Counted from the first letter of the stretch, positions 2,047 to 60,936 are shown. The stretch: 64,000 nucleotides of DNA from Limisphaerales bacterium (GCA_044223735.1 JBGALR010000026.1:21841-85840), one strand, 5' to 3'. The notes: a model not told the origin generated them from the sequence alone. Numbers and translations: made by a program.

Positions 2047-2358
2047 GGAGCGGTCGCCCCGTCAACATTCCCAGATAGGTTGGCCGGGGGCGTTGGTCCC
2101 AGGGTTTGAAAGTTGGCGGAGTCCGCCGGCACCGGTAAGGGTTAAGTGGACCGCTTGAATTCTATAAGGGATCACAGAGCTGCCCCGCCGTAGTCCTCCG
2201 GCGGGACCGCCATGGCGGGGATAATTCAATTCGTCCGGGATTTCCGAGGAACGAAACTACTCAGCGCGATCCTGCCAAACGTTTGTGGTCTGTTGGTTCA
2301 CCGGGCCGGCATCATCGCCCGTCCTCCCGGAGACAGCGCCCTGCCCGATCAATTGCCG

Positions 2359-2817
2359 CGGGACCATTGGACAGCATTTGTCCAACCCCCTCGTTTAGAA
2401 TGGCGGGGTTATTGAAATACTGAATGATGATTTTAGAATGCAAAATGACGAAAGGTTTGGGCGTGCTCCGCGAGCTCGCCGAGAGATCGCTTTTTCCTTC
2501 CGTACCGCAGGCGAGCCCCGGGGTCCATCGGAGGGGAAACCCGGGATTTGAAGGACGGCCTTGTCTGAGCGTTTGCACGGGGTTAATGGGCGTGAAGGGC
2601 TGCGTTGAATCGCCTTGGGGTCGTGTTGCGGAGGGGATGGGAATGCGCTGGCTACGGCGTGCAGGCGCCCTGGTTCGGATGAGTCGTGGAGGGATACGGC
2701 ATGTTGCGCCCTGTGGCTCGCCGTGGAGCAGCGCAGTTTTTTTGGGCCGCCAGACGGCAATTGACACCCATGTAGATTTTACCAAACGAACCCAAAATGG
2801 GCCAAATCAAACCCAAC
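2359..2817 (+). repeat. Copy A (shorter, more diverged) of a three-copy conserved non-coding element
   Basis: Shares ordered blocks with 39472-40076 and the reverse complement of 60379-60936. The blocks are GGACCATTGGACAGCATTTGTCCAACCCCC (2361-2390), TTGGGCG plus hairpin (2457-2480), GAGAGATCGC (2481-2490), GAAGGACGGCC (2550-2560), GCGCCCTGGTTCGGATGAGTCGTGGAGGGATACGGC (2665-2700) and ATTTTACCAAACGAACCCAA (2776-2795). It lacks the boxA-like block and the distal 3' module. Confidence 0.85.
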
Positions 2818-19200: not shown

Positions 19201-19470
19201 GGGAAGGAAATCCGCCTGCGCGGCGCGGCGACGTGGTTTGGGCCGGTCGATCTGCACGTCGCGTGCAAGGATGGCCGCATGGATATTAACGTCTCTGGAG
19301 CCAATCGAAATGCGCCCGGCGCGATTCGTCTGCACCTTCGGCATCCTGAATCCATCAGCCGCATTTATGTGAACGGCCAGTCCGTCTCCAGGGCGGAAAT
19401 GAAGGCCGGCGTAGTATTACTCGACGGAAAATCCGGGAAGATTTCCCCGGTGCCAGCTCACAAGGAGTGA
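16201..19470 (+). CDS. Large secreted protein, possibly a six-hairpin (alpha/alpha toroid) glycoside hydrolase; family not recognised
   Basis: 1089-aa ORF beginning at TTG 16201 (alternative GTG 16228) with a signal-like N-terminus. The central region (YNLDHGFALWILNEHYRFTRDQDWLRQNAPALIAACDFV) resembles toroid glycosidases. The functional call is weak. Confidence 0.5.
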   Translation: MKLNSVIAQVGGALLLLFLSNATLPAAPIRVDLAGFARIVRYAGNSPETFAVQDLKREADGWRAYRGENGQYLLGLEWDEPRDIAEVSVEFATDFPHYDGIGVEYAQQFWPSLETGGWAPIDDPFHGKWTTAKTQNAWRGERNITLIFGQLNEEPGREGLHGLRFRRTYRLRLTFGTNEPPAIRAVHAYAVRPTVEGRFAVRAGKGSVVPPPWRVQVVNGALLDERGLPCSELILVSATNLQVAYLQSDVETQTRTVVTVRCENDPLRGFSFLPQEAESRGELKIPALGVDVAALDATGAHAPLQPGQAILDRVEREPQQTFARARREIPALRKSGQRDRPMYLPLGPPDARQEIAVSYDGSFLLHNSSLKSTASDSARMQWPGPAWYLRLHGGESSFEQSAEGAVRQRLLDGYLPIVISSWESGGIQYEETCVATFLNGEPAAIQGDETVVLLARLTMSNPGSNSATATVQLQTEPGERLQLTNNDVYATGSAGETATNYSAPRYRFWLSHEPTARNVPSPGATLVTSQWSVAPGESRRLELRVPFVTLDTAAERGQIAALDFDRVLVAESNRWQKIIAQQAVIEVPDRLLSDFYKASLAHILITGDRDPLSGYGLLSAGTFLYGLCLNEACHQIRSLEMRGLHQVAQKYLDAIIAGQSRMTLGGRFGDMAGALRGVRLGDPAKEQLQGGPYNLDHGFALWILNEHYRFTRDQDWLRQNAPALIAACDFVTRERSQGSGTNTLSSSDARWGNGLLPPGQLEDPPDWLWWLSVNAYAARGMLATAESLREINHPDAGRIARDASAYLQAVRDSSREAMLRAPVVRLRDGTYIPFQPTRSRLRGRDVGWVRDGLYGPVHLIDCGIYPDNSPEAGWILRDTEDNVFIGEERGRKLTDFESQWFSWGGITIQANLLPNPLVYIRRDQPKAALRAFYNVLATFVYEDVRAFCEHPVDALGLGEGPFYKTPDESAFVVWLRSLLICENGSDLELLPAVPQEWLEDGKEIRLRGAATWFGPVDLHVACKDGRMDINVSGANRNAPGAIRLHLRHPESISRIYVNGQSVSRAEMKAGVVLLDGKSGKISPVPAHKE

Positions 19471-20480
19471 GTAAGACCGCCGGCGGTGCTGGCCGCGGCG
19501 GCGTGGCTGCGACGCCATTCGCGCGGTGATTTTTCAAACGCCTGCCGGAAGCGGCGGTCGAAATAGCTCTGGTCCGAGAAGCCGCATTTCACCGCGATTT
19601 CGGCGATGGTCATGTCGGTCTCCCGGAGCATGCGCAACGCGTTCATGATGCGTACGCGAGTGACGTGCGCGACGAATGTCATGCCCGAAACCTTCTTGAA
19701 CACCTTCATGAATTGCGCCTGGCTCATGTGCGCCAGTTGCGTCGCCTGCGCGATGGTGATGCGTTCGGCATAATTTTGCCGCACGTAATCGAACACGCGC
19801 GCGAGCCGCTCGGCCTGCTGGCGATGCTGCAGATATTCGGAACGCAATACTTCCGCCGCCTGAAACTGGCGCGTCAGCAAATGCAAAATCTCCAGGAAGC
19901 TCGCCTTGCAGCCGGACTGCGAATAAACCACTTCCTTCGAGTGAAAATAACGCCGCATCAATTCGGCGAGCGCCACATGGACCGGCGCGGCCAGCGCGTC
20001 GGTCGCGCGCAACACATGCGGGAAGCCCTCGCGCTTGGCGTAAAACGGAATCAGAAACGCGTAGTCACACGAGGGCGAGCCGGCGCCATAGACGAACTCC
20101 GGCAGAAAACTGATCGCAATCAACCGCGTTTTGAAGCCGGGAAAATCAACGAGGTTGTGCAGCTTCAGATTGTCCACCACCAGCATGTCCCCGGGCGCGA
20201 GCTCGACATTCTGTTCACCCATGCACATGCGCGCCGGCGCGTCGAGCGGGATGGCCACTTCGAGACGCTCATGCCAGTTCGAGATCGGGGTGTAATGCTT
20301 GGAGGAAAACTGAAAGAGGCTGATGCGAAACGGAAATTCCTTGTCCAGGTGCAGGTCGTAGTGGCCCCGATTATCCAGCAGGCGCGCGATATCGTGCGGC
20401 TCGAACTTCAAGCCGCGACACGAGGCAAGCAGGGCGTTAAATGCCTTTTGATGATCGTTCGGCTTGCTTTTCAGAGTCAT
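19458..20480 (-). CDS. AraC-family transcriptional regulator
   Basis: Cupin-like N-terminus plus a C-terminal double HTH (ITIAQATQLAHMSQAQFMKVFKK...IAEIAVKCGFSDQSYFDRRFRQAFEKSPREWR). Confidence 0.9.
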   Translation of the reverse strand: MTLKSKPNDHQKAFNALLASCRGLKFEPHDIARLLDNRGHYDLHLDKEFPFRISLFQFSSKHYTPISNWHERLEVAIPLDAPARMCMGEQNVELAPGDMLVVDNLKLHNLVDFPGFKTRLIAISFLPEFVYGAGSPSCDYAFLIPFYAKREGFPHVLRATDALAAPVHVALAELMRRYFHSKEVVYSQSGCKASFLEILHLLTRQFQAAEVLRSEYLQHRQQAERLARVFDYVRQNYAERITIAQATQLAHMSQAQFMKVFKKVSGMTFVAHVTRVRIMNALRMLRETDMTIAEIAVKCGFSDQSYFDRRFRQAFEKSPREWRRSHAAAASTAGGLTHSL

Positions 20481-32649: not shown

Positions 32650-32827
32650 CTCCGTATTTCAAAAGAAGCGCTGACTACTTGAGCCTTATCAGCCAACTAA
32701 TCAGGTACACCAATACACACGCCCCATACCACCACCAAAATCCCCTTGGGTTGGAGTGCTTTGAAAATAGTCGGGTCTTTCTGTTTATCGCCCAAGTAAC
32801 CATAAAGGGGTCGGTCCTGAATGGCAC

Positions 32828-33160
32828 TTAGTTAAGCCCTAAAACCCTTTTGCTGAGGTGTTTACGGCGAGTCACGCTGGCGAACTTTTGGAAGAGGAGA
32901 CGTCTGGAAAGCCGCTGCATGGCCGCCACCGTCGCTTGCAGCCGGCGTTGGTTTTGCGCCGCCTTTTTCAGTTCCCGATATTGCTCTTTGGATAGGGCTA
33001 CGGTGACGGTTTTTGCTTTCACTTTCCGGGTCCAGACATAGCGGCTGCCCTGTTGTCCTGGCTTGCGTTCAAAAACGCTGCCTTGGGTCAGGTAGCCGAC
33101 GCGGGCGAGTTGGCGGCGCAGGCGTTGGTATTGCGCGGGCATGGCAACGGCTTTTGGCAT
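32828..33160 (-). CDS. Small IS-internal accessory ORF (110 aa), divergent from the transposase; DUF6788-like by recollection
   Basis: MPKAVAMPAQYQRLRRQLARVGYLTQGSVFERKPGQQGSRYVWTRKVKAKTVTVALSKEQYRELKKAAQNQRRL. The ATG is at 33158-33160. This is the C-terminal part of the long ORF 32828-34054, the rest of which is antisense to the transposase. Confidence 0.45.
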   Translation of the reverse strand: MPKAVAMPAQYQRLRRQLARVGYLTQGSVFERKPGQQGSRYVWTRKVKAKTVTVALSKEQYRELKKAAQNQRRLQATVAAMQRLSRRLLFQKFASVTRRKHLSKRVLGLN

Positions 33161-33184
33161 GGACGCAGCAGAGCAGAAAGGGCT

Positions 33185-33214
33185 TTGACTGTCAATGTGG
33201 TGAGTATATATACT
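33185..33214 (+). promoter_or_regulatory. Candidate promoter of the IS4 transposase gene
   Basis: TTGACT (33185-33190), an 18-nt spacer, then TATACT (33209-33214), about 16 nt before ATG 33230. Confidence 0.3.
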
Positions 33215-33229
33215 TACTGTAAACAAACC

Positions 33230-34684
33230 ATGCACACCCCCTATTTTCCTTCCTGGCGCTCCCGGCTGGCCGCGTTGGGGTCCCGCCACGCGCTCACTCT
33301 GCGCCAAAGCACACTCGAACAGCTCCAGGGTCATTTGCGCGGCTTGCTGCCGGCGCCGCTGCTTTCCAGCGAGGACGAAGGGCCAAACAGTCGCAACCGG
33401 ATCTTCGGCTTGCGGCTGACCTTTGAGTGCTTCATCTGGCAGATGCTCAAGCCGCGCACCTCCTGCCGTGAAGTGGTGCGCCACGTGCAAGCCTTGCGGC
33501 GCTTGCGCCGCCGCAGTCCCGCAGCCGAGGGAAATTCCGCCTACGTTCAAGCCCGCCAGCGCTTGCCAAAACCACGCCTGGCGCATGCGCTCACGGCGAC
33601 CGCCGAAGTGGCCGAACGGCGGATCACTGCTTCCCCGCAATTGCAGGGCCGGCCCGTCAAGGTCGTCGACGGCACGACGGTTCAACTGGCCGACACCCCC
33701 GCCAACCAGCAGCGCTTTCCCCAAAACAAGGCGCAAAAACCGGGCTGCGGCTTTCCCGTCATGAAACTGGTGGTGCTCTTTTCGCTCAATAGCGGAGCTT
33801 TGCTCCAGGCCGTCTGGGGCAGCCTCCATAACCACGATCTGCGTCTGTTCCAGCAACTCTGGAAGACTTTGGAAATAGGCGACATTCTTTTGGGAGACCG
33901 CGCCTTTGGAGAGTATACCTCGCTGGCCGGACTGTGCCAGCGAGGTATTGATGTGGTGGCGCGCCTGCACCAGCGGCGAGCGATCGATTTCCGCAAGGCC
34001 TGCCGCCTGGCCAAAGGGGACGCGCTCTTTAACTGGACCAAGAGTGACAACCAATGCGCCATCCTAAACCAAAAACGCTGGCGAGCCTTGCCGCGCCAAC
34101 TCACCGTGCGAGTCATTCGCTTTCACGCGCGCATCCGAGGACATCGCAACCGCCGCATCACCCTGGTGACCACGCTCCTGGACCCCAAACTCTATCCGGC
34201 GGAGCAGCTGATCGCCCTTTATGCCCGCCGCTGGCGCCTGGAACTGTGCCTGCGAGACCTCAAATCCATGATGGGCATGGAACAGTTGCGCTGTCAGTCC
34301 CCAGCCATGGCGGAAAAGGAACTGCTGGCCTACCTGATCGCCCACAATTTGGTCCGCTGCCTCATGGCCGAGTCGGTGGCGCAGTTCCACGCCCAGCTCG
34401 ACCGCCTCAGTTTCAAAGGAGCCCTGGACGGATTGCGCCAATTCAGCGCCGCGCTGGATCGAGCTCCCAACCAAAAATGCCGACGAGAACTCTGGCTCGA
34501 TCTCCTCCTTAACCTTGCCCGTGACCTGGTGCCTCTTCGCCCGGGACGGCGCGAACCCCGCGCACTCAAACGCCGACCAAAACAGTACCCCTTGCTCAAC
34601 CGACCACGTCACCAGTTTCGTGAAATCCCACACCGAAATCGCCATTGGAAAGCCAAACCACGAAATTACCGCACCCTTAACTAA
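33230..34684 (+). CDS. IS4-family DDE transposase
   Basis: 484 aa from MHTPYFPSW. It carries the IS4 signature Y-x2-R-x3-E-x6-K in LYARRWRLELCLRDLK, plus VDGTTVQL and LLGDRAFG DDE-region motifs. Confidence 0.9.
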   Translation: MHTPYFPSWRSRLAALGSRHALTLRQSTLEQLQGHLRGLLPAPLLSSEDEGPNSRNRIFGLRLTFECFIWQMLKPRTSCREVVRHVQALRRLRRRSPAAEGNSAYVQARQRLPKPRLAHALTATAEVAERRITASPQLQGRPVKVVDGTTVQLADTPANQQRFPQNKAQKPGCGFPVMKLVVLFSLNSGALLQAVWGSLHNHDLRLFQQLWKTLEIGDILLGDRAFGEYTSLAGLCQRGIDVVARLHQRRAIDFRKACRLAKGDALFNWTKSDNQCAILNQKRWRALPRQLTVRVIRFHARIRGHRNRRITLVTTLLDPKLYPAEQLIALYARRWRLELCLRDLKSMMGMEQLRCQSPAMAEKELLAYLIAHNLVRCLMAESVAQFHAQLDRLSFKGALDGLRQFSAALDRAPNQKCRRELWLDLLLNLARDLVPLRPGRREPRALKRRPKQYPLLNRPRHQFREIPHRNRHWKAKPRNYRTLN

Positions 34685-34744
34685 GTGCCATTCAGGACTG
34701 ACCCTTCATGGTGGACCACCCTCCCAAAATGTATCTAAAAAAGG

Positions 34745-36974: not shown

Positions 36975-38216
36975 CTATTTTTTGAACTTTTGCAAAACTC
37001 TGGTGCAGCGGCCCTGCACCAGATCGGCGACAGCTTTTGCCGTCGGATGGCTCGTAATCAGTCCCGGCGCTTTTGAAAGGACGGTTTCCGCCACTTCCCG
37101 CACTCGCCGTTTCACCATTGGCTTTGCTAGTCCCGTTTCATCTGCCAACTGGTCAAAGTTCTTTGGCTGCACCTTTTCAGATTCATACTCCCCGCCGATC
37201 TTCATCGCCATTTTCCTGGCGAGATCGGGGTAATAGGCAGTGCTGAGAACATCATAGAGCGGCGCAAGCCGCGGTTCATTTCCATAAAGCAGGGAGAAAT
37301 TTTTCCCGTGCGCGTCATGGTTTCCAATCAGGAAATTGAAAATGACCGCATCGAGCAAACGTTGCAGGTCGATCACCGGAGCGCTGGATAATTCGCGCAA
37401 TAGGTCAAAGCACTGCTTTAGCGAAGGCCCGCCTTCGTTTTGGTATTTGTTGTCAGGGATGATTCCCAGGGCTTGGCAGAAATCTTCCTGGTGCTGCCGT
37501 TCCAAGTATTCAGCGCCACTGGCATCTTTAAGCATGGTGCGGTCGTAACGCTCGACCAGTAGATAATCAACATCCTCAACCTTGCCAGCTTCCGCCCTCG
37601 CCGTCGGCAAACCGATGGCGTGGGCAAGCGTCATGCAAAATGCTTCGTTGAAAACGATTCCTTCAAAATGCGCAATCGCCGGTTTGAGAATATGTGTGCT
37701 GGGCGCTCCGCCAAGCGGAATCGAAATTTTACCATCATGGACATGCACCGCAATTTTATCCTGCGCTCCGGCTAGTGACAGCCGGATGCCATCCTCCCCC
37801 GCCATCAGCGGACGGCGCGGCAGCCTTTTGAGAATTTCCGTCAGCTTCCCGCTGGTCAACGGTCGGTGGCTGTAATTGCGTTCCGGCGGTTTTTCACCTG
37901 CCGGGATGAAGGTCACCGCTCCGGCGCATTCGCCGCCGATTTGTTCCAGCATGGCAAAATCGTTCCTGGCACTGATACCAAGATTTTTTGCGATGATCTC
38001 GCGCTTGCTTTCATCCGGCAATAGGCCCGCAAAAAATCCCCGGCATTCGTTGCGACTGAATTTTTCTTTTTTAAGCGGCAATGAATGTGACAAGGGCACG
38101 GCGTTGGGGTTGTTAAGCCAACCCTCGGCATAATAAAATGCCAACTGCCCATTCTCGTCCTGAATGAGTCGGCCTGCCAATTCCCGCTGCAAATAGACGT
38201 CCAATGTGCGAGGCAT
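36975..38216 (-). CDS. hipA: HipA-family serine/threonine kinase toxin
   Basis: 413 aa with a HipA N-terminal region (LDVYLQRELAGRLIQDENGQLAFYYAEGW, LPLKKEKFSRNECRGFFAGLLPDE) and a catalytic region (FNFLIGNHDAHGKNFSLLY). Confidence 0.9.
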   Translation of the reverse strand: MPRTLDVYLQRELAGRLIQDENGQLAFYYAEGWLNNPNAVPLSHSLPLKKEKFSRNECRGFFAGLLPDESKREIIAKNLGISARNDFAMLEQIGGECAGAVTFIPAGEKPPERNYSHRPLTSGKLTEILKRLPRRPLMAGEDGIRLSLAGAQDKIAVHVHDGKISIPLGGAPSTHILKPAIAHFEGIVFNEAFCMTLAHAIGLPTARAEAGKVEDVDYLLVERYDRTMLKDASGAEYLERQHQEDFCQALGIIPDNKYQNEGGPSLKQCFDLLRELSSAPVIDLQRLLDAVIFNFLIGNHDAHGKNFSLLYGNEPRLAPLYDVLSTAYYPDLARKMAMKIGGEYESEKVQPKNFDQLADETGLAKPMVKRRVREVAETVLSKAPGLITSHPTAKAVADLVQGRCTRVLQKFKK

Positions 38217-38661: not shown

Positions 38662-38736
38662 TGGTGCGCGATACAGGGTTCGAACCTGTGACCCCTTCCG
38701 TGTCAAGGAAGTGCTCTACCACTGAGCTAACCGCGC
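38662..38736 (-). tRNA. tRNA-Val (anticodon GAC), CCA encoded
   Basis: The reverse complement reads GCGCGGTTAGCTCAGTGGTAGAGCACTTCCTTGACACGGAAGGGGTCACAGGTTCGAACCCTGTATCGCGCACCA. It has a 7-bp acceptor stem (one G-U), the anticodon loop TTGACAC and the T-loop GGTTCGAACC. Confidence 0.9.
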
Positions 38737-39471: not shown

Positions 39472-40076
39472 CCGGCCGTTGGACCATTGGACAGTATTTG
39501 TCCAACCCCCCGGGCTAAGATCGCTGGGTTGGTAGATGTGCTCTTTGAAAATAGCGGTCGGTTGGTGGTAGGGCGGCCTCTCCGAGGGCGCCGGAAGAAA
39601 AATTGATATCTCGGCGGACTCGACGAGTCTGACCGGGCATTCTGCCTTGGCTTACGTCGATAAGAATGTTTGGGCGGTCGCGGTGACCGCCGAGAAACGC
39701 TTTGTTTTTCGGTCCCGCATGCGGGAGAGAGATCGCGCCACCTTCGGAAGGACGGCCCAGTCCAGCCACGTGTACGGGGTTGCGGCCCACTTTGGTCGGG
39801 TTGGGGACGGGTGAGGAAGTGGGCTGGGAACGCGATGGAGGCGCCTTGGTTCGGCCGAGTCGCGGAGCCGTACGGCATGTTGCGCGCCGTTGCGCGGCGC
39901 AGTTCAATGGAGCAAGAAGGAAGTTCTCGAAAATGTAAATTTTACCAAACGAACCCAACTTTGGAAATTCACAAAGTCTTTACTGATAGTGGGTTATGAC
40001 TGATTTTGAGTTTTGCGATTTGGAAAACGAACCCAACTTGGGAATGTGCGTATGCAGATTTTCGAATTTCGAATGG
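39472..40076 (+). repeat. Copy B (full length) of the three-copy conserved non-coding element
   Basis: Block 1 lies at 39481-39510. Block 2 with TGCTCTTTGAAAA lies at about 39516-39554. The hairpin is at 39673-39691, GAGAGATCGC at 39727-39736, GAAGGACGGCC at 39747-39757, block 5 at 39841-39876 and the 3' module at 39927-40076. ORFs across it are frame-inconsistent between copies. Confidence 0.9.
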
Positions 40077-40250
40077 GGAATGGCGAATGGGAAAACCTGG
40101 GCGCAAAACGGGGTGCGATGAATGGGACGGTCTTAAAGGCAATTCGCAGTAATTCGCACCTTATAGCACCTGTTGAAAGTTCGAATGCTGAGTTTCGAAC
40201 GCCGAATGATTAGGCGGAAGGGGCGGTTTGGCGAGGGGGGCGGCGGGGTA

Positions 40251-60378: not shown

Positions 60379-60936
60379 CCATTCGAAATTCGAAAATCTG
60401 CATTCGACATTCCCAAGTTGGGTTCGTTTTCCAAATCGCAAAACTCTAAATCGGTCATAACCCATTATCAGTAATGACTTTGTGAATTTCCCAAGTTGGG
60501 TTCGTTTGGTAAAATTTACATTTTCGCGAACTTCCCCCTCGCTCCGAACAGCCGCGCTGCGCCCCAAGCCGTACCACTCCGCGACTCGGCCGAACCAAGG
60601 CATCTCCATGACCTCCGGAAGGGTGCCGAAGGGTATCGAACCGTCCAAAGGGAAGGCTGGAGAAAGCCAGGGCTGTCCTTCCGACGGTAGGGCGATCTCC
60701 GAGAGCGCCGGGAAAAAATTGATTCCTCAACGGTCCCAGCGACCGCCCAAGCATCACAATTCAATACACCGAACCAAACTAACCAACGGCGCCCTTCCTG
60801 ACAGCGGCCGGGACTGGCATCGAGTCCGGCCTGCCTCCTGCGAGTACTCACCATCTATTTTCAAAGAACAAATCTACCGACCCCGCGATCTTAAACCAGG
60901 GGGTGGGACAAATGCTGTCCAATGGTCCAACGCCGG
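60379..60936 (-). repeat. Copy C (full length, inverted relative to copy B) of the three-copy conserved non-coding element
   Basis: Its reverse complement aligns block for block with 39472-40076. Block 1 lies at 60899-60928, TGTTCTTTGAAAA at 60858-60870, the hairpin at 60729-60747 and the 3' module at about 60379-60525. By eye the 3' module shows about 7 differences in about 150 nt versus copy B. Confidence 0.9.

Follow-up and report, generated by a model that had tools for sequence, protein, structure and literature searches.

Does the short hairpin at 39673-39691 of this Limisphaerales bacterium contig belong to a functional RNA, and in what kind of unit would such an RNA be made? The window, meaning the whole stretch of 64,000 nucleotides (nt) that was analysed (GCA_044223735.1 JBGALR010000026.1:21841-85840), comes from the genome of an uncultured member of Verrucomicrobiota subdivision 3 (Limisphaerales). 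An earlier note, made from the sequence alone, had described the hairpin in three copies after a TTGGGCG block, and had proposed that compensatory changes keep it. The hairpin, called hairpin 2 here, is a small part of a noncoding repeat of 0.45-0.6 kb with three copies, which were delimited by alignments and repeat families.

Copy A: about 2355-2801, plus strand; the shortest copy, without a segment of ~100 nt between hairpins 1 and 2
Copy B: 39472-40076, plus strand; the copy that holds the hairpin of the earlier note
Copy C: 60937-60379, minus strand

Copies B and C consist of blocks that are 86-96% identical, and no alignment between them is possible from 39555 to 39665. The repeat is noncoding, as no open reading frame (ORF) is conserved among the three copies in any frame on either strand, and reading frames shift between copies. 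A 1175-residue concatenate of all long frames from six-frame translation has no match among 5.8 billion proteins. With the covariance models of Rfam 15, only tRNA-Val reaches the gathering score in the window, and permissive filters give nothing better than E = 2 in copies B and C, JUMPstart/ops included. On the sense strand, G amounts to 33-35% and C to 21-22% in every copy, and this skew exceeds that of any gene tested. The G-rich, C-poor sense strand suits an untranslated RNA that avoids Rho. As an indicator of the transcribed strand, GC skew was rejected, because coding strands have no consistent sign.

Pairing is maintained in hairpin 2 of all three copies, and the positions and bases given in the earlier note are correct for each of them.

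39669-39695, plus strand: hairpin 2 of copy B, core 39673-39691, a G.G mismatch and a 3-bp extension (UUU/AGA)
2456-2484, plus strand: hairpin 2 of copy A, core 2460-2480, with the identical 3-bp extension
60725-60751, minus strand: hairpin 2 of copy C, core 60747-60729, with two basal G-U pairs and a C-G pair in the extension

The core of copy B, GGCGGTC-gcggt-GACCGCC, has 7 Watson-Crick pairs (−12.8 kcal/mol). In copy C, the core GGCGGTC-gctgg-GACCGTT (reverse complement of 60729-60747) has G-U at the basal pairs, with −9.7 kcal/mol in the sense and −6.8 kcal/mol in the antisense orientation. The core of copy A, GGCGTGCTC-cgc-GAGCTCGCC, has 8 pairs and a T.T mismatch (−11.7 kcal/mol). Its inner stem had been described as different but still pairing. 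It does still pair, but it is not a different stem: in a register-correct alignment, A has one C-G pair more than B, a U.U mismatch and another loop, so that what looked like a new stem is a paired insertion.

The proposal of compensatory changes in all three copies was too strong. From B to C, the two changes are one-sided (G-C to G-U) and not compensatory. Only one change is truly compensatory, with C-G in copy C against U-A in the other two. It lies in an extension of the stem by 3 bp past the G.G mismatch (39669-39671 with 39693-39695), which the note had missed. The extension also contains a U.G wobble that is invariant in A, B and C. RNAalifold recovers the extended helix from its own MAFFT alignment, and the helix is the top-ranked inverted repeat of copy B. 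No pair is broken by substitutions among A, B and C. On the opposite strand, the invariant U.G and the G-C to G-U changes become A.C mismatches, so the sense strand is favoured, and the alignment folds at −16.1 kcal/mol in the sense orientation versus −9.7 kcal/mol in the antisense one.

How far does this pairing exceed chance? Perfect 7-bp hairpins number 42 in the window versus 34 ± 11 in random sequence (0.66 per kb), and if 13 random nt are placed between GGCG and CGCC, the stem is as stable as that of copy A with a P of 0.05-0.09. On the other hand, B and C differ at 11 positions in 37 nt around hairpin 2, with 4 of the differences in paired positions and 0 broken pairs. Random placement of 11 substitutions leaves all 10 pairs intact in 0.3-1.5% of trials (P 0.003-0.015), a value that is optimistic because we delimited the extension with the data in view. 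The 5′ arm, moreover, sits in a block whose sequence is conserved in any case.

The check by RNAalifold that had been suggested, applied to the three copies, recovers the extended helix with an overall covariation term of just −0.42 kcal/mol for the 3′ two-thirds of the element. Since the three copies are paralogous and no further copies were obtained, no statistical covariation is possible and the evidence stays suggestive, as the note itself had cautioned. The argument that structure preserved while sequence changes indicates a functional RNA fares well as the better reading, on the sense strand, and less well in that it has one double change and an ordinary folding energy behind it. Hairpin 2 is real, and selection for RNA pairing probably explains it better than chance, on thin support from the substitutions described above.

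A T-rich run is conserved downstream of hairpin 2 in all copies, and the U-run begins 9-12 nt 3′ of the stem. In copy B, it can pair with a purine arm.

39690-39712, plus strand: hairpin 3 of copy B, CCGAGAAAC-gcuuu-GUUUUUCGG, the purine arm with the U-run

Weaker equivalents are found by direct reading as GAGAGA-ucgc-UUUUUC in A (2481-2496) and as GGAA...UUCC in C. Hairpin 3 and the extension of hairpin 2 are mutually exclusive because they overlap. A GC-rich stem-loop with a T-rich run downstream is reminiscent of intrinsic terminators. In these, however, the U-tract starts within 0-2 nt of the stem, whereas the T-run here is 9-12 nt off and pairable with the intervening purine tract, and no consensus call was obtained. 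Hairpin 2 is not a canonical terminator. A likeness of the 5′ arm, GGCGGTCGCGGTG, to the RfaH ops/JUMPstart element was considered and dropped, as it has one mismatch and an insertion, is not conserved in copy A and has no Rfam hit.

The element that surrounds hairpin 2 can be laid out as six blocks and a 3′ extension.

Block 1: all copies; GGACCATTGGACAGYATTTGTCC(A/C)ACCCCC, then TAAGAT or TAGAAT exactly 12 nt past TGTCC
Block 2: copies B and C only; ~130 nt, mutually unalignable
Block 3: all copies; the TTGGGCG hairpin, then the T-run
Block 4: GGAAGGACRGCC; copy B 39744-39757 (plus strand) as TCGGAAGGACGGCC, copy A 2547-2560, copy C 60684-60671
Block 5: TGGTTCGGnnGAGTCGYGGAG..TACGGC; copy B 39847-39867 (plus strand) as TGGTTCGGCCGAGTCGCGGAG, copy A 2671-2691 (3 mismatches), copy C 60597-60577
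Block 6: ATGTARATTTTACCAAACGAACCCAA; copy B 39933-39967 (minus strand; ATGTAAATTTTACCAAACGAACCCAA in the sense direction), copy A 2805-2776 (minus strand), copy C 60488-60515 (plus strand)
3′ extension: copy B 39959-40076, plus strand; only in B and C, ~120 nt, 90-96% identity

Block 1 looks like a regulated promoter, judging from its motifs and their spacing. In each copy, a perfect palindrome, TTGGACA-N5-TGTCCAA, and a TTGGAC one turn upstream lie over the −35 region, with TAnnAT 12 nt on. This pattern has 3 matches in the window versus 0.22 expected.

39487-39521, plus strand: block 1 of copy B, with palindrome TTGGACAgtattTGTCCAA and, after a gap of exactly 12 nt, the −10-like TAAGAT (39516-39521)
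2367-2401: the same layout in copy A (TAGAAT)
60922-60888: the same layout in copy C (TAAGAT, 60893-60888)

A second stem, CCAACCC (39502-39508) with GGGTTGG (39526-39532), had been put forward for this region with its core retained in copy A. It exists in B but is not supported, since one of its pairs has changed on both sides, to C.C, in copy C and the outermost two pairs are missing from copy A. Its arms flank the −10-like box at 39516-39521, and an RNA from block 1 could not form it because transcription is predicted to begin 3′ of the first arm.

The block-1 20-mer CCATTGGACAGCATTTGTCC is also present in metagenome contigs from soil and peat (L001 1140-1210, L002 1800-1850 and L007 330-400, all on the minus strand). 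In L001, it is followed by 12 nt, TATAAT, 9 nt and then the ATG of a gene of the SRAP (YedK-like) family, which is apparently leaderless. In L002, it lies 12 nt ahead of TAATAT and before another gene. No regulator gene is evident beside the motif in the three contigs. As a side observation, the 20-mer of L007 is 10 nt from a palindrome, AAACGAACC-ATT-GGTTCGTTT, that combines motifs of blocks 5 and 6. Two other assignments of block 1 were rejected. A sigma-54 promoter does not fit by direct reading, in spacing or in the GC dinucleotide. The block-1 motif also differs from the LexA box of Verrucomicrobia, TGTTC-N4-GAACA.

Downstream of the promoter-like head, copies B and C contain a match to boxA and a GC-rich hairpin. 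Antitermination that depends on boxA is known for rRNA operons, lambdoid phages, arrays of clustered regularly interspaced short palindromic repeats (CRISPR) and a few mRNAs.

39540-39550, plus strand: boxA-like GCTCTTTGAAA of copy B, 18 nt past the −10 box
60869-60859, minus strand: boxA-like GTTCTTTGAAA of copy C, at the same offset from its −10 box as in B
39573-39593, plus strand: hairpin 1 of copy B, GGCGGCCTC-tcc-GAGGGCGCC; 4 bp, a 1x1 mismatch, 4 bp and a 3-nt loop, −13.8 to −15.4 kcal/mol
60831-60806, minus strand: hairpin 1 of copy C, GGCCGGACU-cgaugcc-AGUC(C)CGGCC, from the centroid fold

Exact GCTCTTTGAAA or GTTCTTTGAAA is found in the window only in B and C, and on the sense strand only. 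The predicted start is ~12 nt before boxA in both copies. The string GTTCTTTGAAAAC also occurs in the matching full text of papers on mycoplasma detection, presumably as a primer on the conserved 16S-23S spacer. GCTCTTTGAAA has one mismatch to the boxA consensus GYTCTTTAANA, which is gamma-proteobacterial (PMC5725501). In Myxococcus xanthus, the identical sequence is given as boxA for the 16S (rrn) leader and for a CRISPR leader (bioRxiv 10.64898/2026.07.09.737519).

Hairpin 1 is GC-rich and ~22-27 nt 3′ of boxA in B and C, where its sequences differ and its stability is similar. By direct reading, the hairpin of copy A agrees with hairpin 1 of copy B at 15 of 21 bases without gaps and has the same 4+1+4 architecture. 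Because its stem is like hairpin 1 of B and its flanks are like those of hairpin 2 of B, copy A may derive by deletion between hairpins 1 and 2.

A similar head may exist in the closest relative. BoxA-like sites number 24 in 1.36 Mb of related DNA, and besides those of B and C, just one has TGGACA motifs upstream. It lies at 19385-19485 of locus L089 (GCA_037024755.1, JBAIGB010000392.1), in a 670-nt gap free of genes, and comprises three direct TGGAC repeats, CATAAT and TGTTCTTTGAAAAT. Further downstream are AAGGGACGGC and GGTTCG, and the rest of the element is not recognisable. The L089 unit may correspond to the promoter-boxA head in diverged form, so the combination of promoter and boxA seems to recur in the clade.

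The far end of the element has a promoter-like site as well. Block 6 (ATTTTACCAAACGAACCCAA, invariant; 39939-39967 in copy B) reads on the antisense strand as an extended −10 box, TGGTAAAAT, which points into the element in all three copies. In copy B, it forms a sigma-70-like TTTCCA-17 nt-TGGTAAAAT. A promoter scan of the three copies gives TT(T/C)CCA or TTGGCC, 16-18 nt and TGGTAAAAT, as a consensus match only. Within the window, 3 of the 4 occurrences of TGGTAAAAT are inside the three copies.

RNAalifold pairs GGUUCG of block 5 (copy B 39847-39852) with CGAACC of block 6 (copy B 39950-39955), with equivalents in A and C, and the pairing has no covariation because both of its strands are invariant in all copies. 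The 3′ extension of B and C contains a second AAACGAACCCAACTTGGGAA repeat (40025-40036) and, over a longer range, a conserved inverted repeat with arms at 39961-39975 and 40059-40073. At 40060-40210, 3′ of copy B, we also observed short tandem or dispersed TTTCGAA, GAATGGG and CGAATG repeats, which are not in copy C.

We conceived that the element could be a regulated promoter followed by an untranslated leader that resists termination with the help of Nus factors, in which hairpin 2 would serve as a stem-loop module at the RNA level. We favour this reading tentatively and consider that it could well be wrong. Each copy would open with a regulator-dependent promoter whose palindrome overlaps the −35 region. 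Transcription of copy B would start near 39528, and the RNA of B and C would expose boxA, G[C/T]UCUUUGAAA, at about +12 to +22 and then a GC-rich hairpin, in a nut-like or rrn-leader-like arrangement. The boxA would load NusB/NusE and their partners, making the polymerase resistant to Rho over 400-550 nt of untranslated, hairpin-rich RNA. After boxA, 400-550 nt indeed follow without a conserved ORF, rRNA or CRISPR array.

Hairpin 2 would then lie ~140-165 nt from the start of an untranslated sense RNA made from an element that is lineage-specific and multi-copy. Together with its extension, which would alternate with the U-run-sequestering hairpin 3, it would form a structural module, likely one for stability, processing or pausing. 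The leader RNA would run toward downstream genes, namely the nuclease gene in the case of A and the pyrophosphatase row in the case of C. The three copies, their noncoding nature and conserved blocks, the boxA match and the maintained pairing with its wobbles on the sense strand are observed, whereas we infer from sequence that block 1 is an active promoter, where transcription starts, that Nus factors load, that the polymerase reads through and what hairpin 2 does.

The genes around the copies were then considered. Copy A has hsdM on one side and an S1/P1 nuclease gene on the other. Copy B lies between tRNA-Val (with HipA and an insertion sequence (IS) beyond) and a gene for 314 residues. Copy C lies between a ModE-like helix-turn-helix (HTH) gene and a gene for a membrane protein of 228 residues (p228), which is followed by a CBS-DHH pyrophosphatase gene. 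The flanking ORFs of the three copies are mutually unrelated. In the sense direction, a co-oriented gene is present for A (S1/P1 nuclease) and C (the row p228-pyrophosphatase-ComEC); in the antisense direction, one is present for all three (hsdM, tRNA-Val and the ModE-like HTH gene).

Upstream of copy B, the surroundings are island-like. A HipA-family kinase toxin gene (36975-38216, minus strand) stands by tRNA-Val(GAC) (38662-38736, minus strand). The IS element occupies 32808-34704, with a DDE_Tnp_1 transposase ORF at 33053-34684 and inverted repeats of 29 nt (32808-32836 and 34676-34704) that are 97% complementary. A low-GC stretch (48%) follows the IS at 35-36 kb.

Are there further copies? 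The exact block-1 pattern has 0 matches in GTDB genomes, and a scan of metagenomes found the promoter motif only, without the element. Three viral scans gave one chance match, and blastn against plasmids and phages gave nothing. Neither blastn nor nhmmer found the element in 80 Limisphaerales loci (1.2 Mb from family-level relatives) or in loci of the two closest relatives. It is absent beside the orthologous genes of relatives, including the neighbourhood of the nuclease ortholog, and the genes adjoining copy C are themselves absent from relatives. The best matches of the pyrophosphatase are 92% identical (two metagenome-assembled genomes), and the others are at most 82% identical. The absence in relatives says little, because the coding DNA of the nearest ones is just ~72% identical to the window, so that homologs between genes would easily escape notice. 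Independent short-read contigs of the same organism that are 100% identical to the window (Logan SRR28480385 and ENA ERZ937805, activated sludge) end at 2674, 40145, 60418 and 60446. Since the window's own copies do not account for the breaks at 2674 and 40145, the genome may contain more copies outside the window.

Known classes of element were compared. A miniature inverted-repeat transposable element or other non-autonomous IS derivative is disfavoured by the lack of terminal inverted repeats, of a clear target duplication, and of a transposase or related ORF. No terminal inverted repeats join the ends of B or of C, and direct reading of the flanks of copy C gave a weak AGATCC(C)GA match. 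A type I toxin-antitoxin locus does not fit, as no small ORF is conserved across the copies in any frame. GGA motifs are not above dinucleotide expectation, which disfavours a CsrA/RsmA sponge. A mini CRISPR array in the 3′ extension was rejected by direct reading, which found just two 24-nt repeats and a 54-nt spacer. A T-loop or tRNA-like fold in block 5 is not supported, ARAGORN finding tRNA-Val only. A terminator-like stem with T7 in copy A (about 2705-2745) gained no support from folding (z-score +1.0).

Several observations weigh against a Nus-dependent leader. Copy A has only a degenerate boxA, GATGATTTTAGAAT, and keeps hairpin 2 without a good one. The likeness to boxA was noticed only in hindsight. 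Downstream of copy B, in the sense direction, there is no co-oriented gene, and the inward promoter-like block 6 is unexplained by a simple leader model. The z-scores of local folding are −1.1 (A), −1.6 (B) and −1.6 (C), none below −2, and the element as a whole folds no better than its shuffles (−0.9 sense, −1.6 antisense). Finally, the alignment of copy A is ambiguous, and the comparison comprises only three paralogous sequences.

How do other explanations account for these data? A first alternative is that the element is selfish or recombining, a non-autonomous mobile or gene-converting repeat between genes that has no function as RNA. Its founder hairpin would have been kept by processes at the DNA level, such as template switching at a quasi-palindrome or a protein bound to a DNA palindrome, with the wobbles due to luck. 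The presence of copies in both orientations and in island-like settings (hsdM; tRNA-Val with HipA and IS; a synteny break upstream of the pyrophosphatase gene) agrees with this, as do the lack of the element beside the orthologous genes of relatives and the mosaic of B and C, in which 90% blocks adjoin unalignable stretches. Short-read contigs stop at or in every copy, hinting at more copies, and the stability of the hairpin is ordinary. However, the element lacks terminal inverted repeats, a clear target duplication and a transposase or related ORF, while its conserved blocks contain recognisable transcription signals in a sensible order. An invariant U.G and new G-U pairs are not expected of a DNA palindrome, no substitution breaks a pair, and we consider a selfish repeat rather unlikely. 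Pure chance, with an ordinary GC-rich founder hairpin drifting neutrally ever since, is compatible with the frequency of 7-bp hairpins, the P value for the stem of A and the weak z-scores, but it has to accommodate 11 differences between B and C that break no pair and one double change that keeps a pair. We judge it highly improbable.

Transcription could instead matter in the other direction. If the functional transcript is antisense, or if the two promoters face each other, RNA from block 6, or its collision or duplex formation with sense RNA, would control the flanking genes, and hairpin 2 would be a by-product or act in the antisense RNA. Block 6 is promoter-like with an invariant spacer in all three copies, a co-oriented gene is found for 3 of 3 copies versus 2 of 3 in the sense direction, and the z-score of folding is lower for the antisense strand. 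But boxA is readable on the sense strand only, the promoter call is a consensus match only, and the wobbles of the hairpin become A.C in antisense RNA, with the loss of folding energy given above for the alignment and for copy C. The antisense RNA would moreover be C-rich and G-poor and thus a good substrate for Rho, so this arrangement seems distinctly unlikely. A terminator or attenuator on the sense strand, in which hairpin 2, the U-run and the alternative hairpin 3 end an RNA of ~170 nt (~90 nt in A) or gate read-through, would make use of the GC-rich stem and the conserved T-rich run of all copies. The hairpin 2 extension and hairpin 3 exclude each other, and the upstream boxA would make the site conditional. 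Nevertheless, a terminator scan is empty at the hairpin in every copy because the U-run does not abut the stem, no U follows hairpin 3 either, and blocks 4-6 match the upstream part in conservation, which places the end of the unit beyond the hairpin. A terminator or attenuator is therefore very unlikely in our estimate.

The proposed promoter with a Nus-dependent leader has partial parallels in known systems. Like the boxA leaders of rRNA operons, lambda nut, CRISPR arrays and the suhB 5′ untranslated region, the element has boxA soon after a promoter-like box, then a hairpin and a long untranslated stretch that would otherwise be exposed to Rho. Unlike them, it is without rRNA, a CRISPR array or phage genes, occurs three times in 64 kb in unrelated contexts, and has one copy without boxA. 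As a multi-copy, noncoding, intergenic sequence in either orientation with promoter-like sequences and hairpins, it resembles the Correia elements of Neisseria, ERIC/IRU and pneumococcal BOX. The hairpins of those repeats come to lie in the transcripts of neighbouring genes. Those repeats are 100-200 bp long, have terminal inverted repeats or are built of short modules, and occur in tens to hundreds of copies, whereas the present element is 450-600 bp long and has no terminal inverted repeats. Qrr1-5, RsmX/Y/Z and the csRNAs are likewise paralogous noncoding loci with a shared conserved regulator site at the start and stem-loops downstream; however, they are 100-400 nt long with clear intrinsic terminators, and in the element none is evident, GGA is not enriched and there is no Rfam match.

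A bolder version of the proposal is that the element is a portable cassette of a promoter plus nut-like antitermination, belonging to a dispersed Limisphaerales family that places a regulator-controlled, Nus-modified and Rho-resistant start before arbitrary genes. The opposing promoter at the far end would make it a switch by convergent transcription, and the L089 unit would be another member. We regard this as improbable.

If the element is merely a selfish repeat, its value lies in annotation, since repeats of this kind interrupt short-read assemblies and give rise to spurious ORFs. If the promoter with a Nus-dependent leader is true, its conserved operator, −10 box and boxA would offer a handle on the promoters and regulators of Verrucomicrobiota subdivision 3, and a repeated boxA leader independent of any particular gene would add a dispersed regulatory cassette, from an uncultured phylum that has received little study, to the range of antitermination.

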